DNA of 64,000 nt. Source: an uncultured Eubacteriales bacterium. Its GTDB lineage: Bacteria > Bacillota > Clostridia > Oscillospirales > CAG-272. The DNA lies in NCBI GenBank assembly GCA_934796165.1, contig CAKVOU010000007.1:27303-91302 (forward strand). The letters run 5' to 3'. A program made the position numbers and the translations under genes. The notes under the pieces are model-generated. The model was given only the letters and a program-made list of their open reading frames with translations. It was not told the origin of the DNA and did no database searches. Below, piece by piece: positions 11,410-58,327 of this stretch; positions within the stretch are counted from its first letter, which is position 1, and each line of letters opens with the position of its first letter.

Positions 11410-11798
11410 GGTTGAAACCTCCGAAATAGAGTGGATTATCCGTATTGGCGGCGATAAAAACGCCGGCAACCATACAGTTACTGTTATTTTACACCAAAAA
11501 GGCAGGTTTGGCAAGAGGGTTTTCACATTTTTTTGCGTTTCGGTAAATTTTTTCGCAAAAAACAAGAAGACCGCCCCTCCGGCGGTCTCCCTGTCTTATT
11601 TATGCCGTCCCGATTGGAACGGAATGCTTATTGTCATTATAGCATCGGTTTTTCGGTTTGTCAAGCAAATTTTTGTTTTTTTCTCCGAAAACACGAAACT
11701 TTTTTGAAAGATTTTCGTCAATGCTTCCGATTTTCCCGGAAAGAGTGCAAAACGACCCGCTCGTCTTTGATTTTCCTTGTGCAAAACAAATCGGGCGG

Positions 11799-11827
11799 TT
11801 GCTTTTGATGGGGGGATATGATATAAT
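11799..11827 (+). promoter_or_regulatory. sigma-A type promoter
   Basis: TTGCTT, 17 nt spacer, TATAAT, about 125 nt upstream of the metallophosphoesterase ATG. Confidence 0.55.
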
Positions 11828-11951
11828 GAACAACGTGCCCGGGTGCTACGCCATACCGGGAAAGTGCCGACAACGTATTTTTTTGAAACGACAAGCAACA
11901 AAAAATCAGAAGAAGGGGCTTCCGCCACGCGGGAGCTCGGTGGAGTTCCGC

Positions 11952-27600: not shown

Positions 27601-28902
27601 ATAGATGTTGAGCCAGCCCCAATAGGTGGAACCCTTTGCGGAAGCCGCGCTCGCGGTATAGGTGCCGTGACCGGCGCGGAAGGTGAAGAAATTCTGAAGC
27701 GTGGAGGAAAGGTTGGAGGAATACGCCATGAGGAACGGCTTGCCGTTCACACGGTACCACAGATCCGACCACTTGCCTGCCGCATACACGCTGTTGTAGA
27801 TCAGGTTCGCCTGTGTCGCGGAAGCCGCATTTGCGGCAAGCGGAAGCGTGAAGGAGATCTTCGGGGCGTTGACGCCTCCCTCCTTTGCTGCGGTGAAGGT
27901 ATCGAACACCAGGGGATAGGCGGCATCCCAGGTAAAGGTGCCGTTGGTGTTGTCAAAGAAGATGGCATCGACCCCCGCGTTGGCGAGCAGCTCGCTCTGA
28001 CGGCGGATGACCCATCTGTCGATGGAGGAGTAATATCCGTAGATCGGCTCGTTCCAGAAATAAACATGGCTCGAGGGATCCCCCCAGTAGATGCTTGCAT
28101 AATCATTCTGAATCTCGGGGTACTTCTCCATCAGCTTCTGCACGTTGACCGGCGTTTTCCCGAGCCGCGGGGACCCGTTGACCTGCAGGTGCCAGTCCCA
28201 GAAGAACATGGCTAGCGTCTTGCCCTCTACGGGGTCGCCGACATCGGCATTGGTGAGCGAGGTTCTGCCGAGCGCGTCGGTAAACACCCATGTCCCGGGC
28301 TTTACCGTATATTTTGCGTCGGAGGCGTCAAAGGTGCCGCTTGCCGCGCGGGCTGCCTTGCGCACAAAGCAGTCGGAAGCCGTTTCTTTGGTGTCGGTAA
28401 AGGTGACGGTCATCCGGATGTCAAAGTCGGAGATATCCGTCGTGCCGAAATAGCAGTCGGTCCCGGCGATGAGGTTGTTATCCGCCGCAAGCAGCGCAAC
28501 CGTTCCGCTCTGTGCCGAGACGGTCAGAAGATACTTCCCCGCACGCTGCTTCGGGAAGGCAAGCGATGCCTCTCCGTCGTCTTTCACCGTGACGGTTTTC
28601 GAGGACAGCGGCTGATTTTCCAGCGTCGCCGCCACGTCCCCGGCATACGGGCGAAGCGAGACGACCGCCTCTCCCGGCTCTGTGCCGAGGCAGGTCAGGC
28701 TGACATTCAGGGACGTAAACGAAGCATTGGCTTCAAAGAGGAAAGAATATGCCTCCCCGGCTTCCATCGGTTTTGCCGTCAGCTCCGACGCGGGGTCATA
28801 TGCCCTGACAACGCCCCCCGTTTCGCCAAAGGCGACTACCGTGACGGGGACCGCCGCAAGAAGTACGACAGCCGCGATCAAAAGAATCCATCTTTTCTTC
28901 AT
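24664..28902 (-). CDS. 1412-aa secreted multidomain protein: putative glycoside-hydrolase-like core plus three LamG/concanavalin-like C-terminal modules
   Basis: Signal peptide MKKRWILLIAAVVLLAAVPVTVVAFG. Central FFWDWH...VDAIFFDNTNG...FVTGWNEW segments. Three-fold repeated module marked by TFDGVTQKVY(I/V)NG(S/V)LAY. Confidence 0.85.
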   Translation of the reverse strand: MKKRWILLIAAVVLLAAVPVTVVAFGETGGVVRAYDPASELTAKPMEAGEAYSFLFEANASFTSLNVSLTCLGTEPGEAVVSLRPYAGDVAATLENQPLSSKTVTVKDDGEASLAFPKQRAGKYLLTVSAQSGTVALLAADNNLIAGTDCYFGTTDISDFDIRMTVTFTDTKETASDCFVRKAARAASGTFDASDAKYTVKPGTWVFTDALGRTSLTNADVGDPVEGKTLAMFFWDWHLQVNGSPRLGKTPVNVQKLMEKYPEIQNDYASIYWGDPSSHVYFWNEPIYGYYSSIDRWVIRRQSELLANAGVDAIFFDNTNGTFTWDAAYPLVFDTFTAAKEGGVNAPKISFTLPLAANAASATQANLIYNSVYAAGKWSDLWYRVNGKPFLMAYSSNLSSTLQNFFTFRAGHGTYTASAASAKGSTYWGWLNIYPQPVFGSATNLTQVTVSPAQNYTYRNIAGSSYPIIAMNGQYVMGRSYTHAQGDRYDGGNSSLYGYNFAEQFEYALSKNPDVLFVTGWNEWVADRQVTWPADAGYNQTANALPDTFKDEYSRDIEPTKGALKDNYYYQMVNYIRRYKGTEAITPAGRAMAIDIYGDLSQWEAIDLYFAAYRNNTGDRSSYGYGGKLYTETSGRNDIIGAQVARDDDNLYFLIECMDNITPYTGGRWMTLYLDTDQSNGGWETFDYVINKTTPTATTATLERFTGNGYETETVGTVSYAVDGRYLQIKIPKKFVRISGYDFTVNFSVTDNVHDEGNYDTFSGDIMDFYISGDVAPGGRFKYSYVSTAQNALAGLDDYEKLTISGWYEQNFSGIMGLAGTRLIDMTGFATDLTATGWTRTATLYIPEGEYGADDEIGIFGWRGADEGSWTTGIRYNLSTGRISSVNPALFPSASVTPVKLSGWVFFADTFDGVTQKVYINGSLAYTATVSDGAAGKAALAASAQNTLLVGGKATFGDADNAVVNQFDAYGVVLLNTRGYHLATTDAVISRLYETAGIDAMNDPDGMKYDYSDVLAEPWYAYDYTKTEAGTLMNTTRVAVNMVDMRDMDSWTKIARYRIPENEYTDSNKLLVFGIKSTGATGAADIETGIGYNLGTGLAYFSNEENFTVRYQKAKTVTGEAYFLATFSTGSLRVYLNGELILEGTARKDLSRDLTKESQNQIFLNVFANYGGKRTGFRSQYSLYGVSLDYSFGYAHAASTEAANRFYMESLAGKPSNYDAVIADGWFSFDFGSGLTGKQSVSVGGFAGLTGWTHETVFYIPEAAYGAGDYIGVLEPYGNDDGFWFGGIRYNPATGLVSSTNTGLFPLKTRVQTAVPATGYVHFTETFDGVTQKVYVNGVLAYSATARKTVDLLSGTTGSHLLLGAYASAGVPSGSAVDIYAAYGVRQISMKAYRTVADANAVAKLYCVYAGN

Positions 28903-28987
28903 GGGTTTGCCTCCTCATCCGTCTCTGTCCGCACCGGAAACGTCTGTTTTCCGAGCGAAATTTCCATATCTATGCGTCTCCAACTTA

Positions 28988-29016
28988 ATTTTATCAGAAA
29001 ATATATACAAAATCAA
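28988..29016 (-). promoter_or_regulatory. sigma-A type promoter for the secreted protein gene
   Basis: Minus strand: TTGATT, 17 nt spacer, TAAAAT, in an AT-rich divergent region. Confidence 0.55.
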
Positions 29017-29055
29017 GTGTATTTTCGTTTTTTGTGCTTTTTTTAGGAAATGCTC

Positions 29056-29084
29056 TTGCAAAAAATAGGGCATTAAGATATAAT
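29056..29084 (+). promoter_or_regulatory. sigma-A type promoter of the BMC operon
   Basis: TTGCAA (29056-29061), 17 nt spacer, TATAAT (29079-29084), about 110 nt before the aldolase ATG. Confidence 0.7.
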
Positions 29085-29194
29085 ATAATTAATTGTAAAA
29101 TGCCGGGACAAGGCAGATTGCAAGGGCGTCGGAGCACCCGGCTCCGGCAGGATTCAACCATCGGAAAACAAACAGAAAGGAAATAAAAAACAGT

Positions 29195-29989
29195 ATGGCA
29201 ATGTCTCCTTACGAAATCAAAAAAGAGATCTGCGAGATCGGCAAGCGCGTGTATGACAAGGGCTTTGTCGCGGCAAATGACGGCAACATCTCCGTTAAAG
29301 TGAACGACAACGAGTTTTACTGCACCCCGACCGGCGTGTCCAAGGGCTACATGACCCCCGACATGATCATCCGCATTGACGGAAACGGCAACAAGCTGGA
29401 GGGTCGTCTGAACCCCTCCTCCGAGATCAAGATGCACCTGCGCGTTTACCGCGAGCGTCCCGATGTCATGGCAGTCGTGCACGCACATCCTCCGATCGCT
29501 ACGGCGTTCACGGTTGCGAACGTCCCGCTCAACCAGTATATTCTTCCCGAGGCGGTCCTTTCCCTCGGTGACGTTCCGACCTGCGAATACGGCACGCCGT
29601 CCACCATGGAGATTCCGGATTCCCTCATGCCCTACATCCAGAATCACGACGCGTTCCTGCTCAAGAACCACGGCGCCCTGACCGTCGGCAACAGCCTGCA
29701 GAAGGCAATGTTTGTCATGGAAGAGGTCGAGTTCAACGCAAAGATCTGTATGTATGCGCGCCAGCTCGGCGGCGTGGACGAGATCCCCTGCGACCAGCTT
29801 GAAAAGCTGATGGAGCTCCGCAAGAAGATGAATATGCCCGGCAGGCATCCCGGTTGCCGGATGTGCCCCAACAAGGGAACCGACAAGTGCCACTGCAAGA
29901 CCGATGCCACGACCTGTTCCTCCAACACGGCAAATCCCGACCTTGTCGCCGAGATCACCCGCCGCGTGATGGCACAGCTGAACAAATAA
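29195..29989 (+). CDS. class II (fuculose/rhamnulose-phosphate type) aldolase with Cys-rich linker and C-terminal encapsulation-peptide-like helix
   Basis: ANDGNISVK...SSEIKMHLRVY...VVHAHPP aldolase_II motifs. An extra roughly 50 aa tail ends in NPDLVAEITRRVMAQLNK. Confidence 0.9.
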   Translation: MAMSPYEIKKEICEIGKRVYDKGFVAANDGNISVKVNDNEFYCTPTGVSKGYMTPDMIIRIDGNGNKLEGRLNPSSEIKMHLRVYRERPDVMAVVHAHPPIATAFTVANVPLNQYILPEAVLSLGDVPTCEYGTPSTMEIPDSLMPYIQNHDAFLLKNHGALTVGNSLQKAMFVMEEVEFNAKICMYARQLGGVDEIPCDQLEKLMELRKKMNMPGRHPGCRMCPNKGTDKCHCKTDATTCSSNTANPDLVAEITRRVMAQLNK

Positions 29990-30031
29990 TCCGGATTCCC
30001 GAAAATTTACGGAAAGGAATCATACATAACT

Positions 30032-31249
30032 ATGGAACTCAGTCAGAATGAGATCGAACGCATCGTCAGAGAAGTGCTCGGCTCGGTCGGGAGCACCGCC
30101 GCAAATGCGGGCGGTCCCCTTCCCAAAACCGCGCACGTTGCGATGCTGACCGGTCCCAAGCATTTTGAAGTCAAGGAATTCCCCGTTCCCGAGCTCACGG
30201 ACGACGACATTCTCGTCCGGGTCGAGGGTGCCGGCGTCTGCGGAACCGACGTGCATGAATGGCGCGCCGATCCGTTCGGACTCATTCCCGTCGTGCTCGG
30301 TCACGAGGGAACGGGCGAGGTGGTCTACCTCGGCAAGAACATCAAAAAGGACACGGCGGGAAATCCGCTGAAAGTCGGCGACAAGCTGGTGACCTCGGTC
30401 ATCTCCTGCGGCGACTGCTACATCTGCCGCATGGTGCCGGGCAGAACCAACCTCTGCGACGCGCAGGGCGTGTTCGGTCTGATCGGCGACAAGCGCGGCA
30501 CCGCCGAGGGCAACCGCCTCAACGGCTGGTTCTCGGATTACATGCTCATCCGCGGCAAGGGCACGACCTACTTCCGCGTCAACGAGCTGAACCTCAACCA
30601 GAGAATGCTCCTCGAGCTTGCGACCGTCTGTGTTCACGCGCTGGAGCGCGGTCAGAGCACGGGTCTGCTCAACTTCAACTCCAAGGTTCTCTTACAGGGC
30701 TGCGGACCTGTCGGACTGATGATGTTGTGTGTGCTCCGCGCGGCGGGCATCAACCACGTCATCGCGCTGGATGGCAACGAAGACCGTCTGAAGCTGGCGC
30801 AGGCACTGGGAGCCAAGTCAACGATCTGCTTCAAGCGTCCCGATGAGGACACGCTTGACAAGCGCGTTGCAAAGATCAAGGAGCTTGCCAACGGCGTCGG
30901 CGTGGACTTTGCATATCAGTGCACGGGCGCACCCGCGGCGGCGGCTGACATCTACTCCTACATCCGCCGGGGCGGCGGCATGTGCGAGATGGGCTTCTTC
31001 GTCAACAACGGAGAGTACTCCGTCAACCCGCACCTTGCTATGTGCAACAAGGAGATCAACATCGTCGGCTCGTGGGATTACAGCGCATCGGATTACCCGA
31101 CCGCCGTCGCATTCCTCAAGCAGTGCGCGGAGATGAACATCCCCGTGGAGAAGCTCATCACCCACTCCTTCCCGCTCGACCAGATGAACGAAGCGATGGA
31201 GACCAACGTGGCGCAGAAGGGCATCAAGATCTGCTACATTGCAAAGTAA
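30032..31249 (+). CDS. zinc-dependent MDR-family alcohol dehydrogenase with N-terminal encapsulation-peptide-like helix
   Basis: GVCGTDVHEW and GHEGTGEVV Zn-ADH motifs. An N-terminal extension of roughly 35 aa, MELSQNEIERIVREVLGSVG, precedes the catalytic domain. Confidence 0.9.
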   Translation: MELSQNEIERIVREVLGSVGSTAANAGGPLPKTAHVAMLTGPKHFEVKEFPVPELTDDDILVRVEGAGVCGTDVHEWRADPFGLIPVVLGHEGTGEVVYLGKNIKKDTAGNPLKVGDKLVTSVISCGDCYICRMVPGRTNLCDAQGVFGLIGDKRGTAEGNRLNGWFSDYMLIRGKGTTYFRVNELNLNQRMLLELATVCVHALERGQSTGLLNFNSKVLLQGCGPVGLMMLCVLRAAGINHVIALDGNEDRLKLAQALGAKSTICFKRPDEDTLDKRVAKIKELANGVGVDFAYQCTGAPAAAADIYSYIRRGGGMCEMGFFVNNGEYSVNPHLAMCNKEINIVGSWDYSASDYPTAVAFLKQCAEMNIPVEKLITHSFPLDQMNEAMETNVAQKGIKICYIAK

Positions 31250-31288
31250 CAAACAAACGCATCATCAAAAAGAAAGAGGAACACCGGA

Positions 31289-31612
31289 ATGTCACACGCG
31301 CTCGGAATGATCGAGGTATACGGCTTCACGACTGCCATTGTCACGGCGGACGCCGCGGCGAAAGCGGCGGACGTGGAGATCGTTGCCATTGACAAGAACA
31401 AGCCGGCAAATGCCGACAAATGCGAGGTTCCGCTCGTGATGGTCGTCAAAATGGAAGGCAGCGAGGACGCAGTGGAGGCGGCGATGGAGGCAGGCATCAA
31501 GGCTGCCCGGGATCGCGGACGCTACATTACCTCAAAGCTGATTGCCCGGCTCTCGGAGGACGCGGAATGGTTTGCGCGTCTGGACGCGACGGGGCATGAC
31601 AAGCTCCGCTGA
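31289..31612 (+). CDS. BMC-H shell protein (Pfam00936 type) with internal insertion and C-terminal extension
   Basis: [28 protein letters not shown]... Confidence 0.85.
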
Positions 31613-31662
31613 GGCGGAAAACGAAACATAATCTGAACATTATATTTAAGGAGAACAAAACA

Positions 31663-31938
31663 ATGCAGGAAGCACTCGGAATGATCGAGACAAGAGGTCT
31701 CGTCGCAGCAATTGAAGCAGCAGACGCCATGGTCAAGGCGGCAAACGTCGTCCTCGTCGGCTCCGAGAAGATCGGATCCGGGCTCGTCAGCATCATGGTC
31801 CGCGGAGATGTCGGAGCTGTCAAGTCGGCTGTGGAAGCAGGAAACGAAGCGGCAAGCAGACTCGGCGAGGTCGTTGCAACCCACGTAATCCCGAGACCCC
31901 ACGCAGACGTCGAGAAGCTGCTCCCCAAGCTCGGCTGA
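31663..31938 (+). CDS. BMC-H shell protein (PduA/EutM-like)
   Basis: [27 protein letters not shown]...[15 protein letters not shown]...THVIPRPH. Confidence 0.95.
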
Positions 31939-31953
31939 TTTTCCTGATCCGTC

Positions 31954-32223
31954 ATGGAAAACGCAATTGCACTTCTTGAAGTACAGGCGAATGTCGCCGC
32001 GATCGCGGGGCTTGACGCAATGGTGAAGGCGGCAAACGTCCGTCTCATCCACGTCGAGCGCCGCCTCGGCGGACGGCTCATCACCGTCGTTGTGGAGGGT
32101 TCCGTTTCCGACGTGACCGCGGCGCTTGAAGCCGGAAAGGTCGCGGCGGGAGAGGTCGGAACCGTCAAATGCGCGGAGGTCATCGCCCGTCCTCACGAAG
32201 AGGTCATGAAATTTCTGAAGTGA
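31954..32223 (+). CDS. BMC-H shell protein, divergent paralogue
   Basis: [28 protein letters not shown]...VEGSVSDVTAALEAG. Confidence 0.9.
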   Translation: MENAIALLEVQANVAAIAGLDAMVKAANVRLIHVERRLGGRLITVVVEGSVSDVTAALEAGKVAAGEVGTVKCAEVIARPHEEVMKFLK

Positions 32224-32359
32224 CCGGAAACACCCGTTTCCCGCGAAAAACCGCTCCCCAAGGCGCGGCGTCCCCGTTCGGGAACGGATACCAACGCCTG
32301 TTGACCGCATACGCGGAAAACATAAAATAAGTAATGATATCAAATAGGAGGATATTACA

Positions 32360-32632
32360 ATGGAAGCTCTTGGCATGATTGAGACCAGAGGTCTGGTTGC
32401 CGCAATCGAGGCAGCCGATGCAATGGTCAAGGCAGCAAACGTCGTCCTCATCGGCTCCGAGAAGATCGGTTCCGGTTTGGTCAGCGTCATGGTGCGCGGA
32501 GATGTCGGTGCCGTAAAGGCAGCTGTCGAAGCAGGCGGAGCCGCAGCAGGCAAGCTCGGCGAAGTCGTTGCGACCCACGTGATCCCGAGACCTCACGCAG
32601 ACGTCGAAAAGCTGCTCCCCAAGCTCGGCTGA
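32360..32632 (+). CDS. BMC-H shell protein (PduA/EutM-like), about 90% aa-identical paralogue of 31663..31938
   Basis: Near-identical protein with many synonymous nucleotide differences. Strong AGGAGG SD. Confidence 0.95.
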
Positions 32633-33147
32633 TTGTCGTCTGACAGCTGATCCGGGCAACCGCCTGCGGGACGCTTTTCGTCTCCCGTATGCCGCTTGCC
32701 GGGCAGTCTCAAAGCGGGACTGCCCGGCAGAGCCCCGGCGCTGTGTTTCCTTTTTGGGCGCTTCCGCCATATCCGTTTTTCCCTATCCGTTTTTTCTATC
32801 CGCTTTGCTTTTTTACCGGTGTCCCTTCCGCATGAGGAGGGAGCATCGCACAACAGGGCTTCCCGTTCCGTATGCGCATCATACCGGGACAGCCAGCCGC
32901 GTCCCTCGGGCGTCCGCCCCGCGGCGCACGGATTTTTGCCGTGAAACTGCACGGGGAACAAGCAATGATCAGCGGTCGGCAGTCAACGGCAGTGGTCATC
33001 CGTAATCGTTGGTCTGCGGTCGTTCAACTATCCGGCTGTCATCATCTGTCAGCCGGCAACCATCGGAAAATTCACCGCTCCCCGGGGGAGGCGGTATCCA
33101 TACTCGCACGCCGCGCCACAGGGTCCGGCGGGAAAGGCAGGAACTCC

Positions 33148-33399
33148 ATGCAAAAAGGAATCGTCATCGGAAACGTCGTATCCACGCGGAAACAGGACAC
33201 GCTGGTCGGATACAAGTTTCTCGAGGTCAGGATCATTGAAAACAACCGTGAGACGGACAAGTATCTCATCGCGGTAGACACGGTCGGCGCCGGCATCGGC
33301 GAGACCGTTCTCCTCACGACCGGAAGCGGTGCACGTCTTGCGCTCCGTTCCCCGGACGCTCCGGTGGACGCGGCAGTCGTCGGTATCGTCGATTATTGA
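33148..33399 (+). CDS. BMC-P pentameric vertex protein (EutN/CcmL/PduN family)
   Basis: ORF 32872..33399 trimmed to the ATG at 33148. MQKGIVIGNVVSTRKQDTLVGYKFLEV...DAAVVGIVD. Confidence 0.9.
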   Translation: MQKGIVIGNVVSTRKQDTLVGYKFLEVRIIENNRETDKYLIAVDTVGAGIGETVLLTTGSGARLALRSPDAPVDAAVVGIVDY

Positions 33400-33611
33400 C
33401 GCGCGGACACCGGATTTTCCCGGGCGGATCCGCCGGAAAGCCGGAAGAAACGCCGTATCCGGACGACACCCCATGCGACAACTCTGCCGGTACCCGAGCC
33501 GCAGTCCCGCGGGCGGGCAGCGATCCGGCAAACCAACGGAATCCGAAAGCTTCTGTCGGGCAACCCGACTATTACCCTCCCCTCCCGGGAGGTTCATAAG
33601 GAACAGTACTT

Positions 33612-34940
33612 ATGCAAACGAAACTTGTTGAACTCATGAAACAGGCGTCCGTCGTCGGTGCGGGCGGAGCGGGCTTCCCCTCCTATGCAAAGATTGCGGA
33701 CGGAGCGGACACGCTGGTGGTCAACGCCGCCGAGTGTGAGCCTCTGACCTATACCGACCTGACGCTCATGCGTCATCATATGCCCGAGATCATCCGCGGC
33801 GTGGAGATCGTTCTCTCGGAAACGGGAATGGAGCGCGGCATCGTCGGCATGAAGACCCACACGGGCAAGGAGCTCGGTTACACAGACGGGCAGGTGCTCG
33901 GCAAGAACGTCACCGTCTGCCTGCTTCCCGACGTCTACCCGATGGGCGACGAAATCTCACTCATTTACGAAACAACCGGCAGGCTGGTTCAGCCCGGTGC
34001 GCTTCCCATCACCCAGCACGTCATCGTCTACAACGCGGAAACGGTCTACAACATCTACCGCGCCGTAACCGAGGGCGCGCCCGTCACGGAAAAGTGGCTG
34101 TCCATCGGCGGCGACTTAAAACAGGGCTACATCGTCCGGGTCCCGATCGGCATGCGCATCTCCGAGCTGTTTGAAAAGCTCGGCATCACCATCCCCGAAG
34201 GGCACGTACTCATCGACGGCGGTCCGTCCATGGGCAAGATCATCCCGCTTTCCGGCTCGGTCATCCGCAAGACGACCAAGGGTCTTCTGATCCTTCCCGA
34301 CACCATTCCCGCCGTGGTCAACCAGAACCGCTCGCCGGACGAGCAGAGAAAAATCGCAAGCTCGGTCTGCTGCCAGTGCTCGCGCTGTACGGAGCTTTGC
34401 CCGCGGCATATGCTCGGCTACCCGATCGAACCGCACCGCATGGTACGTTCCTCGGTGAGCATCGCCAAGGACGATCCGATTCTCATCCAGACGGCGCAGG
34501 TCTGCTGTTCCTGCGGCATCTGTTCCGTTGCCGCGTGCTGTCAGGGCATTTCCCCCCGCGCGGTCATCAACGAATACAAGGGGATCCTTGCAAAGAACCG
34601 CGTCCGCTTCAACGCGAACGGCAAGATCTATCATCCCCATCCCGACAGAGAGAACCGCATGATGTCCTCCGAGCGCTGGAAAGAGCTGCTCGGCGTCAAG
34701 CGGTTTGACAAGGAAGGTAAGTTCCTCCCCGACCTCATGGGAGCCAAAGAGGTTGTCATTCCCATGAGTATGCACATCGGCGCGCCGTCGGTCCCCGCAG
34801 TGAGTGTCGGCGACCATGTGACGGCAGGACAGCTGATTGCGGGCGCCGCCGAGGGTGCGCTCTCGGTTCCCCAGTACGCGTCCGTCACGGGCAAGGTCAC
34901 CTTTGCCGACGCAAAGCAGATCATCATTCAGGCAGACTGA
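33612..34940 (+). CDS. PduS-like flavo-iron-sulfur oxidoreductase (RnfC/Complex1_51K-related)
   Basis: GAGGAGFPS nucleotide-binding motif, two Cys clusters (CCQCSRCTELCP, CCSCGICSVAAC), and a C-terminal RnfC-type barrel IPMSMHIGAPSVPAVSVGDHV. Confidence 0.85.
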   Translation: MQTKLVELMKQASVVGAGGAGFPSYAKIADGADTLVVNAAECEPLTYTDLTLMRHHMPEIIRGVEIVLSETGMERGIVGMKTHTGKELGYTDGQVLGKNVTVCLLPDVYPMGDEISLIYETTGRLVQPGALPITQHVIVYNAETVYNIYRAVTEGAPVTEKWLSIGGDLKQGYIVRVPIGMRISELFEKLGITIPEGHVLIDGGPSMGKIIPLSGSVIRKTTKGLLILPDTIPAVVNQNRSPDEQRKIASSVCCQCSRCTELCPRHMLGYPIEPHRMVRSSVSIAKDDPILIQTAQVCCSCGICSVAACCQGISPRAVINEYKGILAKNRVRFNANGKIYHPHPDRENRMMSSERWKELLGVKRFDKEGKFLPDLMGAKEVVIPMSMHIGAPSVPAVSVGDHVTAGQLIAGAAEGALSVPQYASVTGKVTFADAKQIIIQAD

Positions 34941-35035
34941 CGCGGTGGTATATACCGGATCGTGCCGCGGCACCGCCGGGATACAGCCGTGAAACCAAAT
35001 ACCGGAACGAATCCACAGAAAGGCAGAGTTAATAT

Positions 35036-35581
35036 ATGTATCAGGCAGTCGGAGTCATGGAACTCAAAAGCATCGCCAAGGGGATCGAAGCGGCAGACGA
35101 CGCGCTCAAGAGCGCGGGAATCCGTCTCGTGTCCGCGCATCCCTCCTGCCCCGGAAAATACGAAATCATTCTGACAGGCTCGGTGTCCAATGTGACCGCC
35201 GCCGTCGATCATGTCAAGGAAAGATTCGGAGACGTGATCGTGGACAGCTGCGTCATGGGCAGAATCGACGAGCAGGTCATCACCGCTCTCTACGGCACGC
35301 AGGCAGTCGCAAAGGAAGGTTCACTCGGCATTGTCGAGACCTATTCCGCGTCCTCCGCGATCAAGGCGGCGGATATCGCGGTCAAGACCTCCCGCGTGGA
35401 GATTTACGAATTGCGTCTGTCCCGCGGTATGGGCGGCAAGGGCGTTCTCCTCGTCACGGGCGAGGTCGGGGACGTAACGGCTGCCGTGGAAGCCGGCGCA
35501 AAGTACGCAAAGGAGCAGTCGCTCTATAACTACTCCGCTGTCATCGCCGCTCCCCACGAGGAGCTCTGGGAACAGCTCTGA
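35036..35581 (+). CDS. tandem-domain BMC-T shell protein, PduT-like
   Basis: Two fused BMC domains. The SCPGKY cysteine sits at the position of the PduT pore [4Fe-4S] ligand. Confidence 0.85.
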   Translation: MYQAVGVMELKSIAKGIEAADDALKSAGIRLVSAHPSCPGKYEIILTGSVSNVTAAVDHVKERFGDVIVDSCVMGRIDEQVITALYGTQAVAKEGSLGIVETYSASSAIKAADIAVKTSRVEIYELRLSRGMGGKGVLLVTGEVGDVTAAVEAGAKYAKEQSLYNYSAVIAAPHEELWEQL

Positions 35582-35703
35582 TAAAATTGCCGGATGCCGG
35601 GAGAATATCCCCGCAGCCTGCAAAGAATTACCGAAAGCCGCCGGTTTTTCCGGAACGGCTTCCGGTTTTCCCCGTTTGATTCCGTCCGAAAGGAGGCAAG
35701 CCC

Positions 35704-38232
35704 GTGGAATCCATTCGTTTTTGCCTTAAAAAGAGCGAGCGTATCACCAAGCTGGTGCACGACCTCTACGATCATCTCCCCGAGATTGAGCCGTACCGTG
35801 CCGAGCTGGTCACAGAGAGCTACAAACAGACCGAAAACCTGCCGATCATCAAAAGACGTTCGGCGGCTTTTCGTCATATTCTCGAAAACTTCCCCGTCGT
35901 TATCCGTGACGGGGAGCTGATTGCCGGCTCCAACTCCGTTTCCCCGCGCGGGTGTCAGACCTTCCCGGAATACTCCTTTGAATGGCTGGAGCCGGAGTTT
36001 GACACGATTGCCACACGCGAAGCGGATCCTTTTTACATTTCCGACGATACCAAGCGTCGTCTTTCTGCCGTCCACCCTTATTGGAAGGGTAAGACGGTGA
36101 GCGACCTTGCCGCTTCAAACATGGATCCCGAGGTACTGGATGTTTTCCTGCACCACGGCATTTTCACGGTCGGCAACTACTTCTACAACGGCATCGGGCA
36201 CGTCAACGTCAACTACGAAAAGGTCATCCGCGACGGGTATGCATCCTTCCTTGACGAAGTGCGCAGGACGCGCGCGTCGCTTGACATGGGAAGCGGCGAC
36301 TACATTACGCGCAAGCAGTTTCTCGACGCGGTGGAGGAATCGCTCCTTGCCGTCATCGGCTACGCGCACCGCTATGCGGAGCTTGCGGAAAAGACCGCCG
36401 GCGGCTGTGCCGATCCGGTCCGCCGCCGCGAGCTGAAGCGCATTGCCGACGCCTGCCGGTGGGTCCCGGAGCATGGTGCGCGTACCTTCTTCGAGGCGTG
36501 CCAGTCCTTCTGGTTCGTGCAGCAGCTTCTGCAGCTGGAATCCAGCGGACATTCCATCTCTCCCGGGCGCTTTGATCAGTATATGTATCCCTATTTCAGG
36601 GCGGACATTGAGTCGGGCAGAGAAACCCTCGAATCGGCACAGGAGCTGATCGACAACATCTGGGTCAAACTCAATGACCTGAACAAGGTGCGCGACGCGG
36701 CATCGGCAAAGGGCTTTGCCGGATACGGGCTGTTCCAGAATCTGATCGTGGGCGGTCAGGACGAGAACGGGCGCGACGCGACCAACGAATTGTCCTATCT
36801 TTGCCTCGAAGCCTCCATGCACGTCCGTCTGCCCCAGCCGTCCCTGTCCATCCGGATCTGGAACGGCACGCCGCACGATCTCATGATCAAGGCGGTCTCG
36901 GTCACGCGCGACGGGCTCGGTGTTCCCGCGTTCTACAACGACGAGGTGATTATTCCCGCGCTGATGAATCGGGGGCTTTCGCTTGCCGAGGCGCGCGACT
37001 ACTGCATCATCGGTTGCGTGGAGCCGCAGAAGGGACACATGACCGACGGCTGGCACGACGCGGCGTTCTTCAATATGTGCCGTCCTCTGGAAATGGTATT
37101 TTCCGACGGCTTTGACCGCGGAGTGCAGATCGGTCCCCACACGGGGAATGTGGAGGAGTTCTCCACCTTTGAAGAATTCTTTGACGCCTACAAAAAGCAG
37201 GAGCACGCCATGCTCAGAATGCTGGTGAACGCCGACAACGCGGTGGATCTGGCGCACGCGGTGCGCTGTCCCCTGCCCTTTGAGTCCTCCATGGTGGATG
37301 ACTGCATCGGGCGCGGCAGATCACTCCAGGAGGGCGGTGCGCACTACAATTTCACGGGTCCGCAGGGCTTCGGCATTGCCAACGTGACCGATGCGCTCAC
37401 GGCGATCCGGGAGCTGGTCTACAACCAAAAGTCGGTCACCATGAAAGAAATGAAGGAAGCGATCGCCGCCAACTTCGGCGAAGCGCCCTCCAAGGAAGAA
37501 GCGATCCGGCTGACGGCGGAGGTAGTCGCACAGCTGACCGGGACCGGTGTCACCGTCACGGACGCGCAGATCGCGGACATCTGCCGCATGATTCTCTCGG
37601 GCAACGCGCTCCCCGAGGCAAAGCGCGCGCGTTACCATGAAATCAGGGAAATGATCGACGCGCTGCCGAGGTACGGCAACGACGACGAGACGGTCGATCT
37701 GCTTGCACGCGAGGTCGCCTACACCTACACGCGTCCGCTTGAGACCTTTACCAACCCGCGCGGCGGGCGGTATCAGGCAGGACTGTATCCGGTATCCGCC
37801 AATGTTCCGCTCGGCGCGGAGACGGGAGCGACGCCGGACGGAAGGCTCTGCGGCACGCCAATTGCGGACGGGGTCGGCCCCGCGCAGGGGCGGGACACCC
37901 ACGGTCCGACGGCGGCGGCAAACTCCGTGGCGAAGCTGGATCACGGCATTGCCTCCAACGGAACGCTGTTCAACATGAAATTCCATCCGTCCGCGCTTGC
38001 GGGCATGGCGGGACTTGAAAAGTTTGCCGCCTTCATCCGCGGATTCTTCGATCAGAAAGGTATGCACGTGCAGTTCAACGTGGTCTCCAGGGAGACGTTG
38101 CTTGACGCGCAGGCGCACCCCGAAAACTACAAAACGCTGGTCGTCCGCGTTGCGGGATACAGTGCGCTCTTCACGACGCTGTCGCGTTCGCTTCAGGACG
38201 ACATCATCAGCCGTACCGAGCAAGGGTTTTAA
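35704..38232 (+). CDS. glycyl radical enzyme, B12-independent diol (1,2-propanediol) dehydratase-like
   Basis: GTG start with AAAGGAGG upstream. Cys loop IIGCVEPQ, C-terminal glycyl loop VVRVAGYSALF, 842 aa. The substrate call rests on locus context only. Confidence 0.9.
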   Translation: MESIRFCLKKSERITKLVHDLYDHLPEIEPYRAELVTESYKQTENLPIIKRRSAAFRHILENFPVVIRDGELIAGSNSVSPRGCQTFPEYSFEWLEPEFDTIATREADPFYISDDTKRRLSAVHPYWKGKTVSDLAASNMDPEVLDVFLHHGIFTVGNYFYNGIGHVNVNYEKVIRDGYASFLDEVRRTRASLDMGSGDYITRKQFLDAVEESLLAVIGYAHRYAELAEKTAGGCADPVRRRELKRIADACRWVPEHGARTFFEACQSFWFVQQLLQLESSGHSISPGRFDQYMYPYFRADIESGRETLESAQELIDNIWVKLNDLNKVRDAASAKGFAGYGLFQNLIVGGQDENGRDATNELSYLCLEASMHVRLPQPSLSIRIWNGTPHDLMIKAVSVTRDGLGVPAFYNDEVIIPALMNRGLSLAEARDYCIIGCVEPQKGHMTDGWHDAAFFNMCRPLEMVFSDGFDRGVQIGPHTGNVEEFSTFEEFFDAYKKQEHAMLRMLVNADNAVDLAHAVRCPLPFESSMVDDCIGRGRSLQEGGAHYNFTGPQGFGIANVTDALTAIRELVYNQKSVTMKEMKEAIAANFGEAPSKEEAIRLTAEVVAQLTGTGVTVTDAQIADICRMILSGNALPEAKRARYHEIREMIDALPRYGNDDETVDLLAREVAYTYTRPLETFTNPRGGRYQAGLYPVSANVPLGAETGATPDGRLCGTPIADGVGPAQGRDTHGPTAAANSVAKLDHGIASNGTLFNMKFHPSALAGMAGLEKFAAFIRGFFDQKGMHVQFNVVSRETLLDAQAHPENYKTLVVRVAGYSALFTTLSRSLQDDIISRTEQGF

Positions 38233-38468
38233 GGGAATTCCGGGAGAGTAAGCGAGTCGGGCGGCGGAAGTCCGCGGTTGCGGCTCGGGGGCTCTGGGAG
38301 ACGAGGGGGCACGGCGGACGGAGAGCCGCTGAGCGCGGGCGGAAGTCGCCCGGCTGCGCGCGGATACAGGTTTCTGCGTATACCGGTAAAGTCGTCCCTC
38401 GCACAGTACAGAGTTACCCCTCGGACCAGCAGATTTGCCCATAAAAAAGACCGAAAGGAGACCGTGCC

Positions 38469-39299
38469 ATGTATCTGTACGGCGGACAATCGAATGCTGA
38501 CAGCCGGGCGGAATCTCCGGACGGCTCCGTCAGGGGGCGCATCTTTGACATCCAAAGATACTCCGTACACGACGGTCCCGGCATCCGCACCATTGTATTC
38601 TTCAAGGGCTGTGCGCTGCGTTGCCGTTGGTGCTGCAACCCCGAATCCCAGGAATCCGGAATCCAGACCATGGTCCGCGCGGGAAAGACCGAAACGGTCG
38701 GGCGCGACGTGACCGTTGACGAGGTGCTTTCCGAGGTGCTCCGCGACCGTCCGTATTACCTGCGTTCCGGCGGCGGTATGACGCTCTCCGGCGGAGAGGC
38801 ACTGCTTCAGCCGGAATTTGCCCTTGCACTCCTCCGGGCGGCGCACGACGAAGGGCTTGACACTGCAATCGAGACGGCGGGCTTTGTTCCCGAAGAAAAC
38901 CTTGTACGGGTGCTCCCCGAAGTCGATCATGTGCTGATGGACATCAAGCACATGGACAAAAACAAGCACCGTGCCTTCACGGGGCAATCCAACGAACGGA
39001 TTCTTTCCAATGCACGCTATACCGCCTTCCACGCAAAAGAACTGATCATCCGGGTACCGGTCATCCCGACCTTCAACGATACGGAGGAAGAGATCCGCGC
39101 GATCGCCGCATTCGCGGCGGGGTTACCCGGCGTGAAAAAACTACACCTGCTTCCCTACCATCGTCTGGGACAGGACAAATACACGGGGTTATCCCGCGAC
39201 TACGGAATGGGGGAGGTTCCCCCGCCGACAAAGGAGCACATGGAAACGCTTCTTTCGGTTGCAGAAGAATCCGGGCTGACCTGTCAGATCGGCGGCTGA
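38469..39299 (+). CDS. glycyl-radical enzyme activating radical-SAM protein (short, PflA-like)
   Basis: HDGPGIRTIVFFKGCALRCRWCCNPES CX3CX2C motif. 276 aa. Confidence 0.9.
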   Translation: MYLYGGQSNADSRAESPDGSVRGRIFDIQRYSVHDGPGIRTIVFFKGCALRCRWCCNPESQESGIQTMVRAGKTETVGRDVTVDEVLSEVLRDRPYYLRSGGGMTLSGGEALLQPEFALALLRAAHDEGLDTAIETAGFVPEENLVRVLPEVDHVLMDIKHMDKNKHRAFTGQSNERILSNARYTAFHAKELIIRVPVIPTFNDTEEEIRAIAAFAAGLPGVKKLHLLPYHRLGQDKYTGLSRDYGMGEVPPPTKEHMETLLSVAEESGLTCQIGG

Positions 39300-39537
39300 C
39301 ATCCGCCGCCACGCTCGCTTCCCGCGCCCGCCTGCGGCGCTTCGCGCCGCTGCCGCCGGGAGCCGGGCAATCATGTTTCAAAAAAACGGGCGGTTCTCCG
39401 CCCCGGCTCCCGGCGCCCCGCCACCCGCTCCGCGGGTGGCGCGGGCGCGGTACCGCAAAGGGGTTCTTCCCGGCGGCGGTACACCACACAAGCACGGAGA
39501 ACTGTTCCGCACGGTTTTCCCGGATAAGGAGAATGCA

Positions 39538-39906
39538 ATGAGCCAAGACCTGTTCAAAGAAAATATGCGTATTGTCCAGGAGCTGGTTCCAGGGCGGCAG
39601 ATCACACTCGCGCACATCATCGCCAACCCCGACCGCGAGCTGTACCGCAAGCTGGGACTTGACCCCGCGGTGGATTACGCGCACGCGGCAATCGGCATTC
39701 TGACCGTCAGTCCCGCGGAATCCGCTGTCATCGCGGCGGATCTCTCCATGAAGTCCTCGGACGCGTCGCTCGGCTTTGTGGACCGCTTCACGGGCACGGT
39801 GCTCCTGACCGGTTCGGTTTCCGCGGTGGAATCCTCCTTTTCGGCAGTCACGGAATACTTCCGCGCAACACTCGGTTACGCGGTCTGCCCCATGACGCGC
39901 ACGTAA
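39538..39906 (+). CDS. circularly permuted BMC shell protein (PduU/EutS-like)
   Basis: ORF 39373..39906 trimmed to the ATG at 39538 (AAGGAGA upstream). VQELVPGRQITLAHIIANPD...AIGILTVSPAESAVIAADL. Confidence 0.85.
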   Translation: MSQDLFKENMRIVQELVPGRQITLAHIIANPDRELYRKLGLDPAVDYAHAAIGILTVSPAESAVIAADLSMKSSDASLGFVDRFTGTVLLTGSVSAVESSFSAVTEYFRATLGYAVCPMTRT

Positions 39907-39911
39907 CCTTC

Positions 39912-40337
39912 ATGAAGAAACTGATCCTCATGGGCAGGGTCGCGGCGGGGAAAACCACGCTGACCCAGGCACTGCGTGGCGAACAGCTCCGCTACTGCAA
40001 GACCCAGTACATCGACTACCGCGACACCATCATCGACACCCCCGGTGAATATACGGAGGTTGCCCGCCTCGGTGCCGCGCTTCAGCTTTACGCTTACGAA
40101 GCGGACATTGTGGGGCTGGTCATCGGTGCGGAGGAGCCGTATTCGGTGTTTCCGCCCGCGATCACGGGCATGGTCAACCGCGAGGTCATCGGAATCGTTT
40201 CCGGTATTGACAGACCGGGCGCCGATCCCGACCGCGCTGAGCGCTGGCTGCGGCTTTCGGGGTGCCGGCGCGTGTTCCGCCTGTCCTCCGTAACGGGCGA
40301 GGGACTTGGTGACCTGATTGCCTATCTGGATGCCTGA
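39912..40337 (+). CDS. EutP/PduV-family small GTPase
   Basis: P-loop GRVAAGKTTL, with DTPGEY. Confidence 0.85.
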   Translation: MKKLILMGRVAAGKTTLTQALRGEQLRYCKTQYIDYRDTIIDTPGEYTEVARLGAALQLYAYEADIVGLVIGAEEPYSVFPPAITGMVNREVIGIVSGIDRPGADPDRAERWLRLSGCRRVFRLSSVTGEGLGDLIAYLDA

Positions 40338-40651: not shown

Positions 40652-41446
40652 ATGAATAGAAAGACCAAAGTCATCTGTTTTGCCAACAACAAAGGCGGCT
40701 CCGGGAAGTCCACCACTTGCTCCAACGTCGGCTATGCCATGGCACTGGCGGGAAAGCGGGTTCTGCTCATCGACGGGGACATGCAGCTCAACCTGACCCT
40801 TTCCTTCTTTTCCGAGGAGGAAGCGCTCGGCTTCGTGCAATCCGGAAAGAACCTGTACACGGGCATGAAGGAAGCGCGGGACCTTTCGGAATACGTCGTC
40901 CCGACGGCGTATGCGGGCGTTGATCTGATTCCCTCCTCCACGCTCATGAGCTCGATCGAATTTGATCTGTTCACCAAGTGGCAAAGAGAATTCATTCTCA
41001 AAAAGGGGCTTGCAAAAATCCTTGACTCCGGCGTTTACGACTACGTGCTCATTGACGCGCCGCCGACGCTCGGCGGGTGGGTCATGAACATCATGTGCGC
41101 GTCGGACTACCTCATCATTCCGGTGGAAGCCAGCCCGTGGGGGCTGTTCGGGCTTGCCAATATGTTTGATTTTGTCGGTCAGGTGCGCGGCATTGCGCCG
41201 GACCTCAGTCTGCTCGGCATCGCCATCACCAAAGCGGACGAACGCAAGAATTATTTCAAGCAGACGGTCGAAACGCTCCGTTCGCAGAACGATGTTCGCC
41301 TGTTTGAACATTACATCCGCATTGACGCATCGGTGGAATGGGCACAGGACGATTCCAAGCCGGTAATCGCGTTCAAGCCCTCCAGCCGGAGTGCAAAGGA
41401 ATACACAGAACTGACAAAGGAGATTCTTCAGTATGTCGATCGGTAA
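40652..41446 (+). CDS. ParA/MinD-family deviant Walker-A ATPase (no N-terminal DNA-binding domain)
   Basis: ORF 40553..41446 trimmed to the ATG at 40652. KVICFANNKGGSGKSTT, LLIDGDMQ and VLIDAPPTLG motifs. Confidence 0.9.
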   Translation: MNRKTKVICFANNKGGSGKSTTCSNVGYAMALAGKRVLLIDGDMQLNLTLSFFSEEEALGFVQSGKNLYTGMKEARDLSEYVVPTAYAGVDLIPSSTLMSSIEFDLFTKWQREFILKKGLAKILDSGVYDYVLIDAPPTLGGWVMNIMCASDYLIIPVEASPWGLFGLANMFDFVGQVRGIAPDLSLLGIAITKADERKNYFKQTVETLRSQNDVRLFEHYIRIDASVEWAQDDSKPVIAFKPSSRSAKEYTELTKEILQYVDR

Positions 41447-41813
41447 GAACAGTATTTCCCGTCTGTCCGGGGGAAAGCAGAACCCGACGGAAAAGACCGC
41501 AAAGAAGTTCCCGGAAGCAAACGAGGTGACGGAAACGGCGGCAAAGAAAGCGGAAAAAACCGCGAAGAGCGCGGCAAAGAAAGTAACAGGCAAGCGCACG
41601 AAAGAGAACGCAAAGACGGCAACCGTCCCTGCACAAACAGGTACCCGCAAGAGGACTTCGGCGTCCAAAGCGAAAGTACTTCCCGCAAAAACCGCGGAAT
41701 CCGCGGCAGCAGTGACCGCTCCGGAGGGGACCGCCGTGAAGTCCGCCGGGGAAAGCCGGGCATCCGCCGCATTCTGTGCAGTCGGCGACGCACTTCCCTA
41801 CTGGCTTCTGTAA
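41433..41813 (+). CDS. 126-aa lysine/alanine/threonine-rich, probably disordered ParA partner protein ending in PYWLL
   Basis: Overlaps the ParA gene by 14 nt and has its own AAAGGAG SD about 9 nt upstream. Low-complexity basic sequence. A strong terminator follows. Confidence 0.75.
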   Translation: MSIGKNSISRLSGGKQNPTEKTAKKFPEANEVTETAAKKAEKTAKSAAKKVTGKRTKENAKTATVPAQTGTRKRTSASKAKVLPAKTAESAAAVTAPEGTAVKSAGESRASAAFCAVGDALPYWLL

Positions 41814-56150: not shown

Positions 56151-56513
56151 AAGTGCCGGAGAGTCCCCGGACATCCGGATGCCCCGTGCCCGCTCTCCGG
56201 CAATCTGCCCGGTAAGTTGCCCGGTTGCCCCCATCCGGACTTCTTTCCCTCGCGGGTCCATGCGGGTCCACCGGTAAGACACCCGGCAGTTGCTCTTCCT
56301 CCGCCTCCCCCAAAACACGGGACGACCCCATCCGAGAGGTCATCCTCCCGTATGTTTCTCACCTGTACGCCCGGTATACTGTCCTTAACAAACGGTACCG
56401 GCATCAGAAAAACGGCGAAGGTCTGCAATTACCGAAAGGGCGGAACGCATCCGCACAGGAAAAGAACAAAACCATCCGAACACCCACAAAAACACAAGAA
56501 CAAGGAGAAACAA

Positions 56514-58280: not shown

Positions 58281-58327
58281 AAGCGGGCGTACCCGCCGCT
58301 TATCAACCGAAAGGAAAAAGATCAAAT

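Follow-up and report, generated by a model that had tools for sequence, protein, structure and literature searches.

A GRM5-type microcompartment locus of a human-gut Eubacteriales species lacks the genes of the oxidative branch

Introduction

Metabolosomes are described as protein shells that enclose a signature enzyme together with an aldehyde dehydrogenase (AldDH), a phosphotransacylase (PTAC) and an alcohol dehydrogenase (ADH), which recycle NAD+/NADH and coenzyme A (CoA) inside the shell. Among the bacterial microcompartments (BMCs) built around a glycyl radical enzyme (GRE), the GRM5 type is reportedly the fucose/rhamnose microcompartment of Roseburia inulinivorans and Clostridium phytofermentans (Axen 2014, Zarzycki 2015, Ferlez 2019, Sutter 2021). 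Here we describe a locus of this type in a 64-kb stretch of contig CAKVOU010000007.1, assigned to an uncultured Eubacteriales bacterium. Throughout, the window denotes this whole 64-kb stretch, L-numbers are labels of comparison loci and P-numbers are labels of entries in a protein collection. The operon in the window encodes an aldolase, a Zn-dependent ADH (Zn-ADH), shell proteins, PduS- and PduT-like proteins, a GRE and its activase, and has no gene for AldDH, the PTAC PduL or the acetate kinase AckA. An initial annotation had inferred that the organelle either only reduces or relies on an oxidative branch encoded at a satellite locus, and our analysis found these to be the right pair of readings.

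The closest described systems are the GRM5 loci themselves. The window shares with them an aldolase and a Zn-ADH with putative encapsulation peptides (EPs), a propanediol-dehydratase GRE with an internal insertion, a short activase, PduV and an EutS/PduU-type shell protein. It differs from them in having no PF00171 AldDH, no PduL, no adjacent acetate/propionate kinase and no DeoR regulator. Unlike Lachnospiraceae GRM5 loci, it has the gene order of an uncultured Eubacteriales/Christensenellales-like clade, with the aldolase first, the GRE late and a ParA pair last. PduS and PduT are present in 57 of 57 GRM5 loci, although what they do in B12-independent microcompartments is described as unsettled (Ferlez 2019, PMC6325248).

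PVM-like loci (Sutter 2021; here L090 and L091) have the same backbone of aldolase, Zn-ADH, BMC-H series, BMC-P, PduS and PduT, at 48-89% identity to the window. Unlike the window, they keep AldDH, PTAC and AckA, have no GRE or activase and stop at lactaldehyde disproportionation. The window thus does not match the PVM-like definition (an aldolase locus with AldDH and PTAC and no GRE) and represents the complementary reduction, in which the GRE was kept and the AldDH/PTAC branch lost. Sequence comparison indicates that one backbone exists in three forms: the complete GRM5 locus, the PVM-like locus without GRE, and the window locus without AldDH, PTAC and AckA.

The Salmonella Pdu organelle also takes 1,2-propanediol through propionaldehyde to 1-propanol within a shell, has a PduS/PduT pair and PduV, and poses the same question of NAD(H) homeostasis. 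By contrast, its dehydratase is B12-dependent (PduCDE), and PduP (AldDH) and PduQ (ADH) recycle NAD+/NADH internally. The consulted parts of the Sutter 2021 catalogue describe two further kinds of comparable locus. Its EUT2B and EUT2D types (Supplementary Data 2) resemble the window in pairing an unbalanced core with PduS/PduT homologs, but they lack the NADH-consuming ADH, keep AldDH and have another signature enzyme and substrate. Its BUF and MIC categories (no AldDH; incomplete core) resemble the window in both respects, and the missing AldDH and PTAC would push the locus towards one of these labels. Both are, however, catch-all categories of unknown function with other shells and enzymes, whereas the signature enzyme, shell and ancestry of the window are clearly GRM5. 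No AldDH-less subtype of GRM5 or of any other GRM is described in the consulted parts of Sutter 2021 (where the GRM5 entry was available in part and GRM5like as an image only), Ferlez 2019 or Ravcheev 2019, and full-text searching of the literature gave none either. Within that scope the gene content of the window is not that of a catalogued subtype, which the initial annotation had named as one way in which its proposal could fall.

Results

The operon has no AldDH, PduL or AckA gene

The operon consists of 13 co-directional genes on the plus strand (29195-40337). Pfam and the precomputed gene calls on the same metagenome contig agree on them, and the gene inventory of the initial annotation was correct. 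No AldDH, PduL or AckA was found anywhere in the 64-kb window by tblastn with queries from five relatives (E < 0.01). Pfam scans of 40 of the larger open reading frames (ORFs) of the window outside the operon likewise recovered no PF00171, PF06130, Pta or acetate kinase; they matched only housekeeping genes, a prophage remnant and pyruvate:ferredoxin oxidoreductase (PFOR). The approximately 7 kb read beyond the right end of the window hold genes for PFOR, an aminotransferase and a DUF378 protein, but none of the oxidative branch.

The longest gap in the operon, 515 nt at 32633-33147, contains no ORF with a family match. Searches for remnants of PduL, AldDH or AckA in this gap and in the whole window gave chance-level matches only (tblastn with word size 2; blastn against the sister locus). 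The operon thus really lacks AldDH and PduL, as first noticed by reading the sequence, and the gap hides neither gene nor a remnant of one. Of the canonical four-activity core, the signature enzyme and the ADH are present and AldDH and PTAC are absent, both from the locus and from the 64-kb window.

The locus derives from a complete GRM5 ancestor

Related loci were collected by scanning one genome per species for related GREs, which gave at least 80 loci. The best GRE identity was 71% among the matches listed, and the counts for relatives given below also refer to these listed matches, with the sister locus L082 (see below) included for PduL. The relatives are gut or rumen metagenome-assembled genomes; the best of them bear the names Eubacteriales, Clostridia, Candidatus Scatosoma or Christensenellaceae, and Lachnospiraceae come next. 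The approximately 25 closest of these loci have a single gene order, in which the spacer measures 170-350 nt. Its 5' part reads AckA-aldolase-AldDH-ZnADH-4×BMC-H-spacer-PduL, and its 3' part continues with BMC-P-PduS-PduT-GRE-activase-PduU-PduV-ParA-small ORF. The AldDH of these relatives has 485 aa and PduL about 217 aa, both with an N-terminal EP; in L002 the identities of AckA, AldDH and PduL were established by Pfam (PF00871, PF00171 and PF06130, respectively).

The three genes are constant features of this clade. A PF00171 AldDH lies between aldolase and ADH in all 19 complete relatives covering the region, a PF06130 PduL is present in all 27 loci covering the region between BMC-H and BMC-P, and AckA is found directly 5' of the aldolase in all 18 loci covering that position, inverted in L010. 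The window has the order of the clade, including the ParA pair, minus exactly AckA, AldDH and PduL. These genes were not contiguous in the ancestral locus and together make up its oxidative, ATP-yielding branch. Were three of 16 genes lost at random, exactly this trio would be hit in 1 of 560 cases.

A GRE tree built by neighbour joining pairs the window with L082 as its sister and places both inside this clade, among loci that bear AldDH and PduL. The window is the only locus in the tree with the aldolase present and AldDH and PduL both absent. L082, which came from a large protein collection, has a GRE of 81% identity to that of the window and PduS, PduT and BMC-P proteins of 88-91% identity. 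It retains PduL immediately 5' of BMC-P. Orthologs of the two loci are 73-91% identical overall, the genes adjoining PduL being at 88-91%. Because the window has kept the clade order with three genes missing, is nested in a clade of complete loci and has a sister with PduL, these comparisons indicate that the locus without AldDH, PduL and AckA is a derived state and not a primitive one.

The junctions support this. In complete relatives an EP-tagged AldDH gene of about 1.46 kb occupies the aldolase-ADH junction, so that about 1.5 kb separate the aldolase stop from the ADH start. In the window this distance is 42 nt (29990-30031, plus strand), and the remaining DNA carries a good ribosome-binding site for the ADH (GGAAAGGAA). 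At the PduL position, the DNA alignment with L082 shows homology through the end of the fourth BMC-H gene and the first approximately 340 nt of the spacer, then skips the PduL ORF and restarts about 25 nt 5' of the BMC-P start, at a conserved GGGAAAGGCAGG. No remnant of PduL was found at 32633-33147, either at the protein or at the DNA level. The alignment and the lack of a remnant indicate that the 515-nt gap is the old spacer between BMC-H 4 and PduL, with no hidden gene. At these two junctions AldDH and PduL have been cleanly excised, with the neighbouring ribosome-binding sites kept. At the third position relatives carry AckA, with sugar or regulator genes upstream; in the window a divergent gene for a 1412-aa secreted protein lies there, which thus marks a rearrangement breakpoint. 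A clean and branch-specific loss that has become fixed and whose remaining genes are under selection, as described next, is a new evolutionary picture.

The spacer downstream of BMC-H 4 is itself a conserved feature of the clade, measuring 170-420 nt in relatives. In the window it contains a perfect 14-bp hairpin at about 32696-32733 (fold z-score -2.9) and T-rich tracts, and a second promoter-like site lies 5' of it at 32301-32328, just before BMC-H 4. Rfam gave no match on the whole window at the gathering threshold and nothing credible on 28900-33200 at E ≤ 1. The spacer may set the ratio between the upstream transcript (enzymes and BMC-H) and the downstream one.

A further PduL variant turned up in the protein collection: P0136, on a 1.4-kb ENA contig, encodes a 329-aa PduL with an internally duplicated PTAC domain.

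Every strain read has the deletion form, and purifying selection maintains the retained genes

The 90%-identity cluster of the window GRE comprises 23 sequences, all at least 98.9% identical to it. GREs of this cluster occur on over 40 ENA, NCBI and Logan contigs, some of them from Hadza/Nepal human-gut samples. We read about 27 independently assembled contigs from several cohorts (3 + 20 + 4 contexts), and all lack AldDH and PduL and have the same gene order. Contigs sharing the junctions include ones of 91, 211, 225 and 237 kb. The one difference among strains is a 123-nt indel that leaves the spacer at 515 nt in the window and 392 nt in other strains. The deletion form is thus fixed in the species.

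Selection was estimated by the method of Nei and Gojobori between the window and strain L084. For each of the 13 operon genes, synonymous divergence (dS) within the species was 0.015-0.27 and the ratio of nonsynonymous to synonymous divergence (dN/dS) was 0-0.11, with values of 0.034 for the aldolase, 0.015 for the ADH, 0.066 for PduS, 0.056 for PduT and 0.040 for the GRE. Since strains that differ by a dS of up to 0.27 share the arrangement, the loss predates their divergence. The low dN/dS in all 13 genes indicates that the rest of the operon has been kept under strong purifying selection.

The retained genes are of GRM5 type

By gene content and homology the locus belongs to the GRM5 type, as the initial annotation had assigned it: its set of shell proteins, the EP tags on aldolase and Zn-ADH, the type of GRE and the PduS/PduT proteins all point to this class. 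A GRE and its activase are encoded with BMC shell genes (PF00936 and PF03319). The GRE is of the 1,2-propanediol-dehydratase clade, without an N-terminal EP and with an internal insertion of about 60 aa. The PF00596 aldolase carries a C-terminal EP and the PF00107/PF08240 lactaldehyde reductase an N-terminal one, where EPs were judged from the amphipathic-helix sequence and its conservation.

The first gene (29195-29989) encodes a class II aldolase of the fuculose/rhamnulose-1-phosphate type with 264 aa (PF00596, E = 1.5e-48). Its best NCBIfam matches are FucA-type families, all below cut-off. It ends in an amphipathic helix, DLVAEITRRVMAQLNK (aa 249-264; window 29939-29986), which is conserved in relatives. 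The second gene (30032-31249) encodes a Zn-ADH of 405 aa from the medium-chain dehydrogenase/reductase superfamily, of lactaldehyde/propionaldehyde reductase type (PF08240 and PF00107). It begins with an amphipathic helix, MELSQNEIERIVREVL (aa 1-20), that is also conserved in relatives, and both helices look like EPs. The motifs GHE, CxxCxxC and GxGxxG and an Asp after the beta2 strand can be read from its sequence. Identity is 80-83% with the GRM5 ADHs of the relatives L008 and L010 and 47% with that of Blautia schinkii.

Between its catalytic domain and the C-terminal EP the aldolase has a Cys-rich linker (aa ~218-241; window ~29846-29917) with the conserved pattern HPGC-x2-C-PN-x-GT-x2-C-x-C plus a fifth Cys. 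Such a linker occurs at the same aldolase position in L002, L003, L010, L012, L014 and L090 and in Lachnospiraceae and Acutalibacteraceae, and in some relatives the linker of the ADH, too, contains a Cys cluster of this kind. The aldolase cluster may be a metal or redox site.

The GRE (35704-38232; 842 aa) has the PFL-like (PF02901) and Gly_radical (PF01228) domains. Its best PDB match is 5i2a, the diol dehydratase of Roseburia inulinivorans (1173 bits, full-length and almost gapless). In comparison with that structure the active-site residues are conserved, namely C438 and E440 in the GCVEP loop, H166, and G818 in the RVAGYS loop. The enzyme is, by homology, of the B12-independent 1,2-propanediol dehydratase type and an ortholog-level match to the R. 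inulinivorans enzyme. The insertion is also conserved in relation to 5i2a. Insertions of this kind are typical of GRM3, GRM4 and GRM5 enzymes (PMC6325248), and that of the window GRE is predicted to act as an EP. The activating radical SAM enzyme (38469-39299; PF04055 and PF13353) has the CxxxCxxC motif and matches NCBIfam TIGR02494 at 297 bits, above cut-off; its true start may lie a few codons 3' of 38469.

Four BMC-H proteins of the PF00936 family are encoded in series: BMC-H 1 (31289-31612; 107 aa), which has a loop insertion and is kept as the first BMC-H in relatives, BMC-H 2 (31663-31938; 91 aa, E = 1.3e-30), BMC-H 3 (31954-32223; 89 aa) and BMC-H 4 (32360-32632; 90 aa, E = 2e-29). After the non-coding spacer, the site of the PduL deletion, follows the BMC-P pentamer or vertex protein of the EutN_CcmL family (33148-33399; 83 aa; PF03319, E = 4.5e-29). 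The PduS-like flavo-iron-sulfur protein (33612-34940; 442 aa; Pfam Complex1_51K, Fer4_17 and RnfC_N) combines an NADH- and FMN-binding Complex1_51K domain with two Cys4 motifs and the RnfC_N domain, and its NCBIfam rnfC-like match scores 191 bits, below cut-off. The PduT-like tandem-domain BMC-T (35036-35581; 181 aa, two BMC domains in Pfam) carries the pore cysteine motif C38-P-G-K-Y, read from its sequence; the motif was defined in PMC6325248. An EutS/PduU-type shell protein (39538-39906; PF00936) follows the activase. It is called as 122 aa in the window and in other strains, and it scores 104 bits against the NCBIfam EutS subfamily, below the 123-bit cut-off. The last gene encodes a PduV/EutP small GTPase (39912-40337; 141 aa; PF10662, E = 8e-46).

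Other GRE loci seen in the scan differ from this architecture. A second GRM5 architecture occurs in Acutalibacteraceae and others (L034, L039, L054, L058, L064, L066 and L071), with the order GRE-AE-PduU-PduV-aldolase-160-aa EP-tagged protein-ZnADH-shell-PduS-PduT-DeoR, where AE stands for the activating enzyme. Its AldDH has moved to after DeoR, at the edge of the DNA covered, and there is no PduL inside the shell block. Six of these loci (L034, L054, L058, L064, L066 and L071) were considered as possible additional GRM5 loci without PduL, but PduL may lie further downstream. L083 is a Blautia-like GRM5 locus with a 1001-aa GRE call (P0003); the roughly 160 extra aa at its N-terminus are probably an artefact of a misplaced start codon or a fusion. 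In addition, many Lachnospiraceae and Clostridium genomes such as those of Blautia acetigignens and Clostridium hominis carry a GRE of 63-65% identity with an activase. In these GRE-activase loci (L038, L041, L042, L044-L047, L049, L063, L069, L077 and L080) no match to microcompartment or pathway query proteins was found within up to 10 kb on each side, contig permitting. From their sequence context these GREs appear to be non-encapsulated diol-dehydratase-like enzymes.

Flanking genes

The flanks are as first annotated, with a divergent secreted-protein gene upstream and a ParA gene with a small ORF downstream. The upstream protein (24664-28902, minus strand) contains a Laminin_G_3 (concanavalin-like lectin) domain. 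A sigma-70-like promoter candidate, TTGCAA-17-TATAAT (29056-29084, plus strand), which the initial annotation had placed before the operon, is present about 110 nt 5' of the aldolase gene; it is predicted by its consensus match (10/12).

Downstream of PduV the plus strand encodes a ParA-type ATPase, identified by family match (40652-41446), and, overlapping it, a small Lys/Ala/Thr-rich protein of 126 aa (41433-41813) with no Pfam or NCBIfam match. A ParA ATPase with an overlapping Lys/Ala/Thr/Pro-rich protein of 107-129 aa follows PduV in most clade loci that reach past it; the pair was seen in the window (40652-41813) and in L002, L003, L008, L010, L014 and L082. The termini of the small protein are conserved, with an N-terminal MSIGKxSI in the window or MSIGK/MPIGK and a C-terminal LPYWLL, MPYFLL or similar. 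Its middle evolves fast (dN/dS 0.50), and the protein is of low complexity and probably disordered. By sequence and position the two look like a candidate McdA/McdB-type pair that positions the organelle of the BMC locus.

Further away, a prophage remnant or small phage-like island lies at 54831-60818 (continuing in L092 at 11019-12443) between glycosyltransferase and PFOR genes. It includes a large terminase and a P22-like portal, and a capsid protein lies just beyond 60.9 kb. PFOR lies 22 kb downstream of the operon, from 62430 to 64000 and onwards across the window's right edge (L092 12560-16168). The complete protein has 1202 aa, and the 506-aa ORF of the window is its C-terminal part only.

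Discussion

We propose, with a probability of roughly 0.5, that the locus encodes a GRM5 derivative that has lost its oxidative, ATP-yielding branch and works as a stand-alone, NADH-consuming organelle forming 1-propanol. This reading is favoured because the missing trio is the oxidative branch, the three genes were non-contiguous, their excision was clean, no ortholog-level PduL was found and the remaining genes are under purifying selection. The reductive reading of the initial annotation is partly supported: AldDH and PduL are absent from the operon, and the clean, branch-specific loss and the selection on the remaining genes are now added, while supply from a second locus is the main rival.

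In such an organelle the aldolase would split L-fuculose-1-phosphate or L-rhamnulose-1-phosphate in the lumen into dihydroxyacetone phosphate (DHAP) and L-lactaldehyde, and the Zn-ADH would reduce lactaldehyde to 1,2-propanediol with one NADH. The GRE would convert 1,2-propanediol to propionaldehyde and, AldDH being absent, the same Zn-ADH would reduce all of it to 1-propanol with a second NADH (these steps follow the GRM5 pathway in PMC6325248). Two NADH would thus be used per substrate and none made in the lumen, whereas in the canonical organelle AldDH repays the NADH. Without a luminal enzyme to regenerate NADH, reducing equivalents must be supplied from outside. The simplest route is an exchange of NADH and NAD+ through the shell, possibly with the participation of PduS/PduT. 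The conversion of DHAP to acetate and CO2 would yield one NADH and, through PFOR, one reduced ferredoxin. As these four electrons equal the demand of propanol formation, the fermentation of a deoxyhexose to acetate, CO2 and 1-propanol would be balanced without H2. The cost of the route would be the ATP from propionyl-phosphate, which is forgone. That shells can pass NAD(H) is known, with appreciable NAD(H) traffic in Pdu (PMC3471927), and a mirror-image precedent for an unbalanced core exists in EUT2B and EUT2D, which have PduS/PduT and no ADH in the consulted part of Sutter 2021, Supplementary Data 2.

Several points weigh against a stand-alone reductive organelle. No regulator, deoxyhexose isomerase or deoxyhexose kinase gene is present near the operon, which leaves homology to GRM5 as the ground for assigning the substrate. 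To our knowledge a lumen that uses two NADH per turnover without an internal source is unprecedented, the canonical view being that cofactors are recycled within the shell. The genome of this bacterium is covered here over about 71 kb, and an EP-tagged AldDH and PduL could be encoded at a second locus; in the consulted parts of Sutter 2021, multiple BMC loci (two or more) are given for about 20% of the genomes that bear any. Finally, a PVM-like locus with AldDH, PTAC and AckA, whose GC content of 0.60 is like that of the window, is present in gut metagenomes.

These last points lead to the strongest alternative, a normal disproportionating GRM5 organelle whose AldDH and PduL are supplied in trans. 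Here AldDH and phosphotransacylase, with the kinase, would be encoded at a satellite or second BMC locus (PVM-like, PDU or EUT) and co-encapsulated by their own EPs, so that the operon copies became redundant and were then lost. We regard this as possible, at odds well short of even. Precedents exist in the consulted parts of Sutter 2021, where the ACI-type AldDH lies consistently on a satellite locus and EUT2K is interpreted as a module that supplements GRM1A. A full second locus would, however, equally have freed the aldolase, ADH, shell and PduS/PduT genes from selection, yet all of them are strongly conserved. The sister lineage L082 kept its own PduL, and moving three non-contiguous genes needs several independent events. 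Moreover, no ortholog-level PduL was found although the species is represented on more than 40 contigs: a search with the sister PduL against 5.8 billion protein clusters gave nothing above 78% identity except the query itself.

One 77%-identity match of that search lies in the PVM-like locus L090. We tested L090 as a possible second locus of the same species. Its GC content of 0.60 fits, but its tetranucleotide profile fits less well than that of the sister: the PVM-like locus correlates with the window at 0.70-0.81, whereas comparisons within the window give 0.88-0.97 and the sister species gives 0.85-0.95. This is weak evidence that it probably belongs to another organism. L090 and L091 (ENA ERZ27236803 and ERZ28615695) read RhaA-RhaB-AckA-aldolase-small ORF-PduO-like (Cob_adeno_trans + HbpS-like)-AldDH in their 5' part and ZnADH-5×BMC-H-PTAC-BMC-P-PduS-PduT-two-component system in their 3' part, without GRE or activase. 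The L090 PduL is indexed in 165 blocks of the protein collection, which indicates that the L090/L091 organism is abundant.

A bolder form of the stand-alone organelle would make it the first natural metabolosome without internal cofactor recycling that obligately imports electrons. Low-potential electrons, for instance from PFOR-reduced ferredoxin, would be conducted inward through the [4Fe-4S] pore of PduT, and PduS would use them to regenerate luminal NADH. Since PduS is RnfC-like such an entry is possible in principle, if speculative, and we consider this form rather unlikely. Electron entry through PduS and PduT had been suggested in the initial annotation; we found no support for it, and it conflicts with the midpoint potential of the Pdu PduT cluster, +99 mV compared with -320 mV for NAD+/NADH (Ferlez 2019, PMC6325248). 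If true, it would give the PduS/PduT pair of GRM loci a defined, essential and inward redox function.

Propionate could also still be made, outside the compartment. The shell would then hold the aldolase, ADH and GRE only, and escaping propionaldehyde or 1,2-propanediol would be oxidised in the cytosol, for example by an AdhE-type CoA-acylating dehydrogenase, Pta and AckA. Fermentative Clostridia usually carry cytosolic AdhE, Pta and AckA, and nothing in the operon stops the aldehyde from escaping. Against this, the encapsulated ADH competes for the aldehyde at high local concentration, and no such genes are present in the 64-kb window. Such leakage would also defeat the accepted purpose of a metabolosome, the sequestration of aldehyde (Sutter 2021, in the consulted parts; PMC3471927), and we think this arrangement improbable.

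It is very improbable that the operon is a decaying remnant on its way to pseudogenisation, with no functional organelle. Two or three core genes are gone and long intergenic gaps of 515, 236 and about 238 nt are present, but all 13 ORFs are intact in every strain read, dN/dS is 0-0.11 at a dS of up to 0.27, catalytic and cofactor motifs are conserved, and the deletions are clean with ribosome-binding sites retained. An assembly or binning artefact of one metagenome contig, conceivable in that the window comes from a short-read metagenome assembly, can be dismissed for practical purposes, as about 27 independently assembled contigs from ENA, NCBI and Logan, which differ in sample and pipeline, show the same junctions.

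If the oxidative branch is encoded elsewhere, the finding reduces to an example of locus fragmentation. The operon departs from the textbook metabolosome: the half that produces NADH and uses CoA has been removed in evolution, and selection maintains what is left. If the organelle stands alone, NAD(H) must cross its shell at catalytic rates, or else electrons are carried through the shell by PduS/PduT. The rule of internal recycling would then be broken, and the species, or its operon expressed in a heterologous host, would be a clean system in which to study the role of PduS/PduT. A recurrent human-gut bacterium would turn fucose or rhamnose from mucin or plants into 1-propanol and not into the short-chain fatty acid propionate, and its operon would offer a natural template for engineering alcohol-producing microcompartments.

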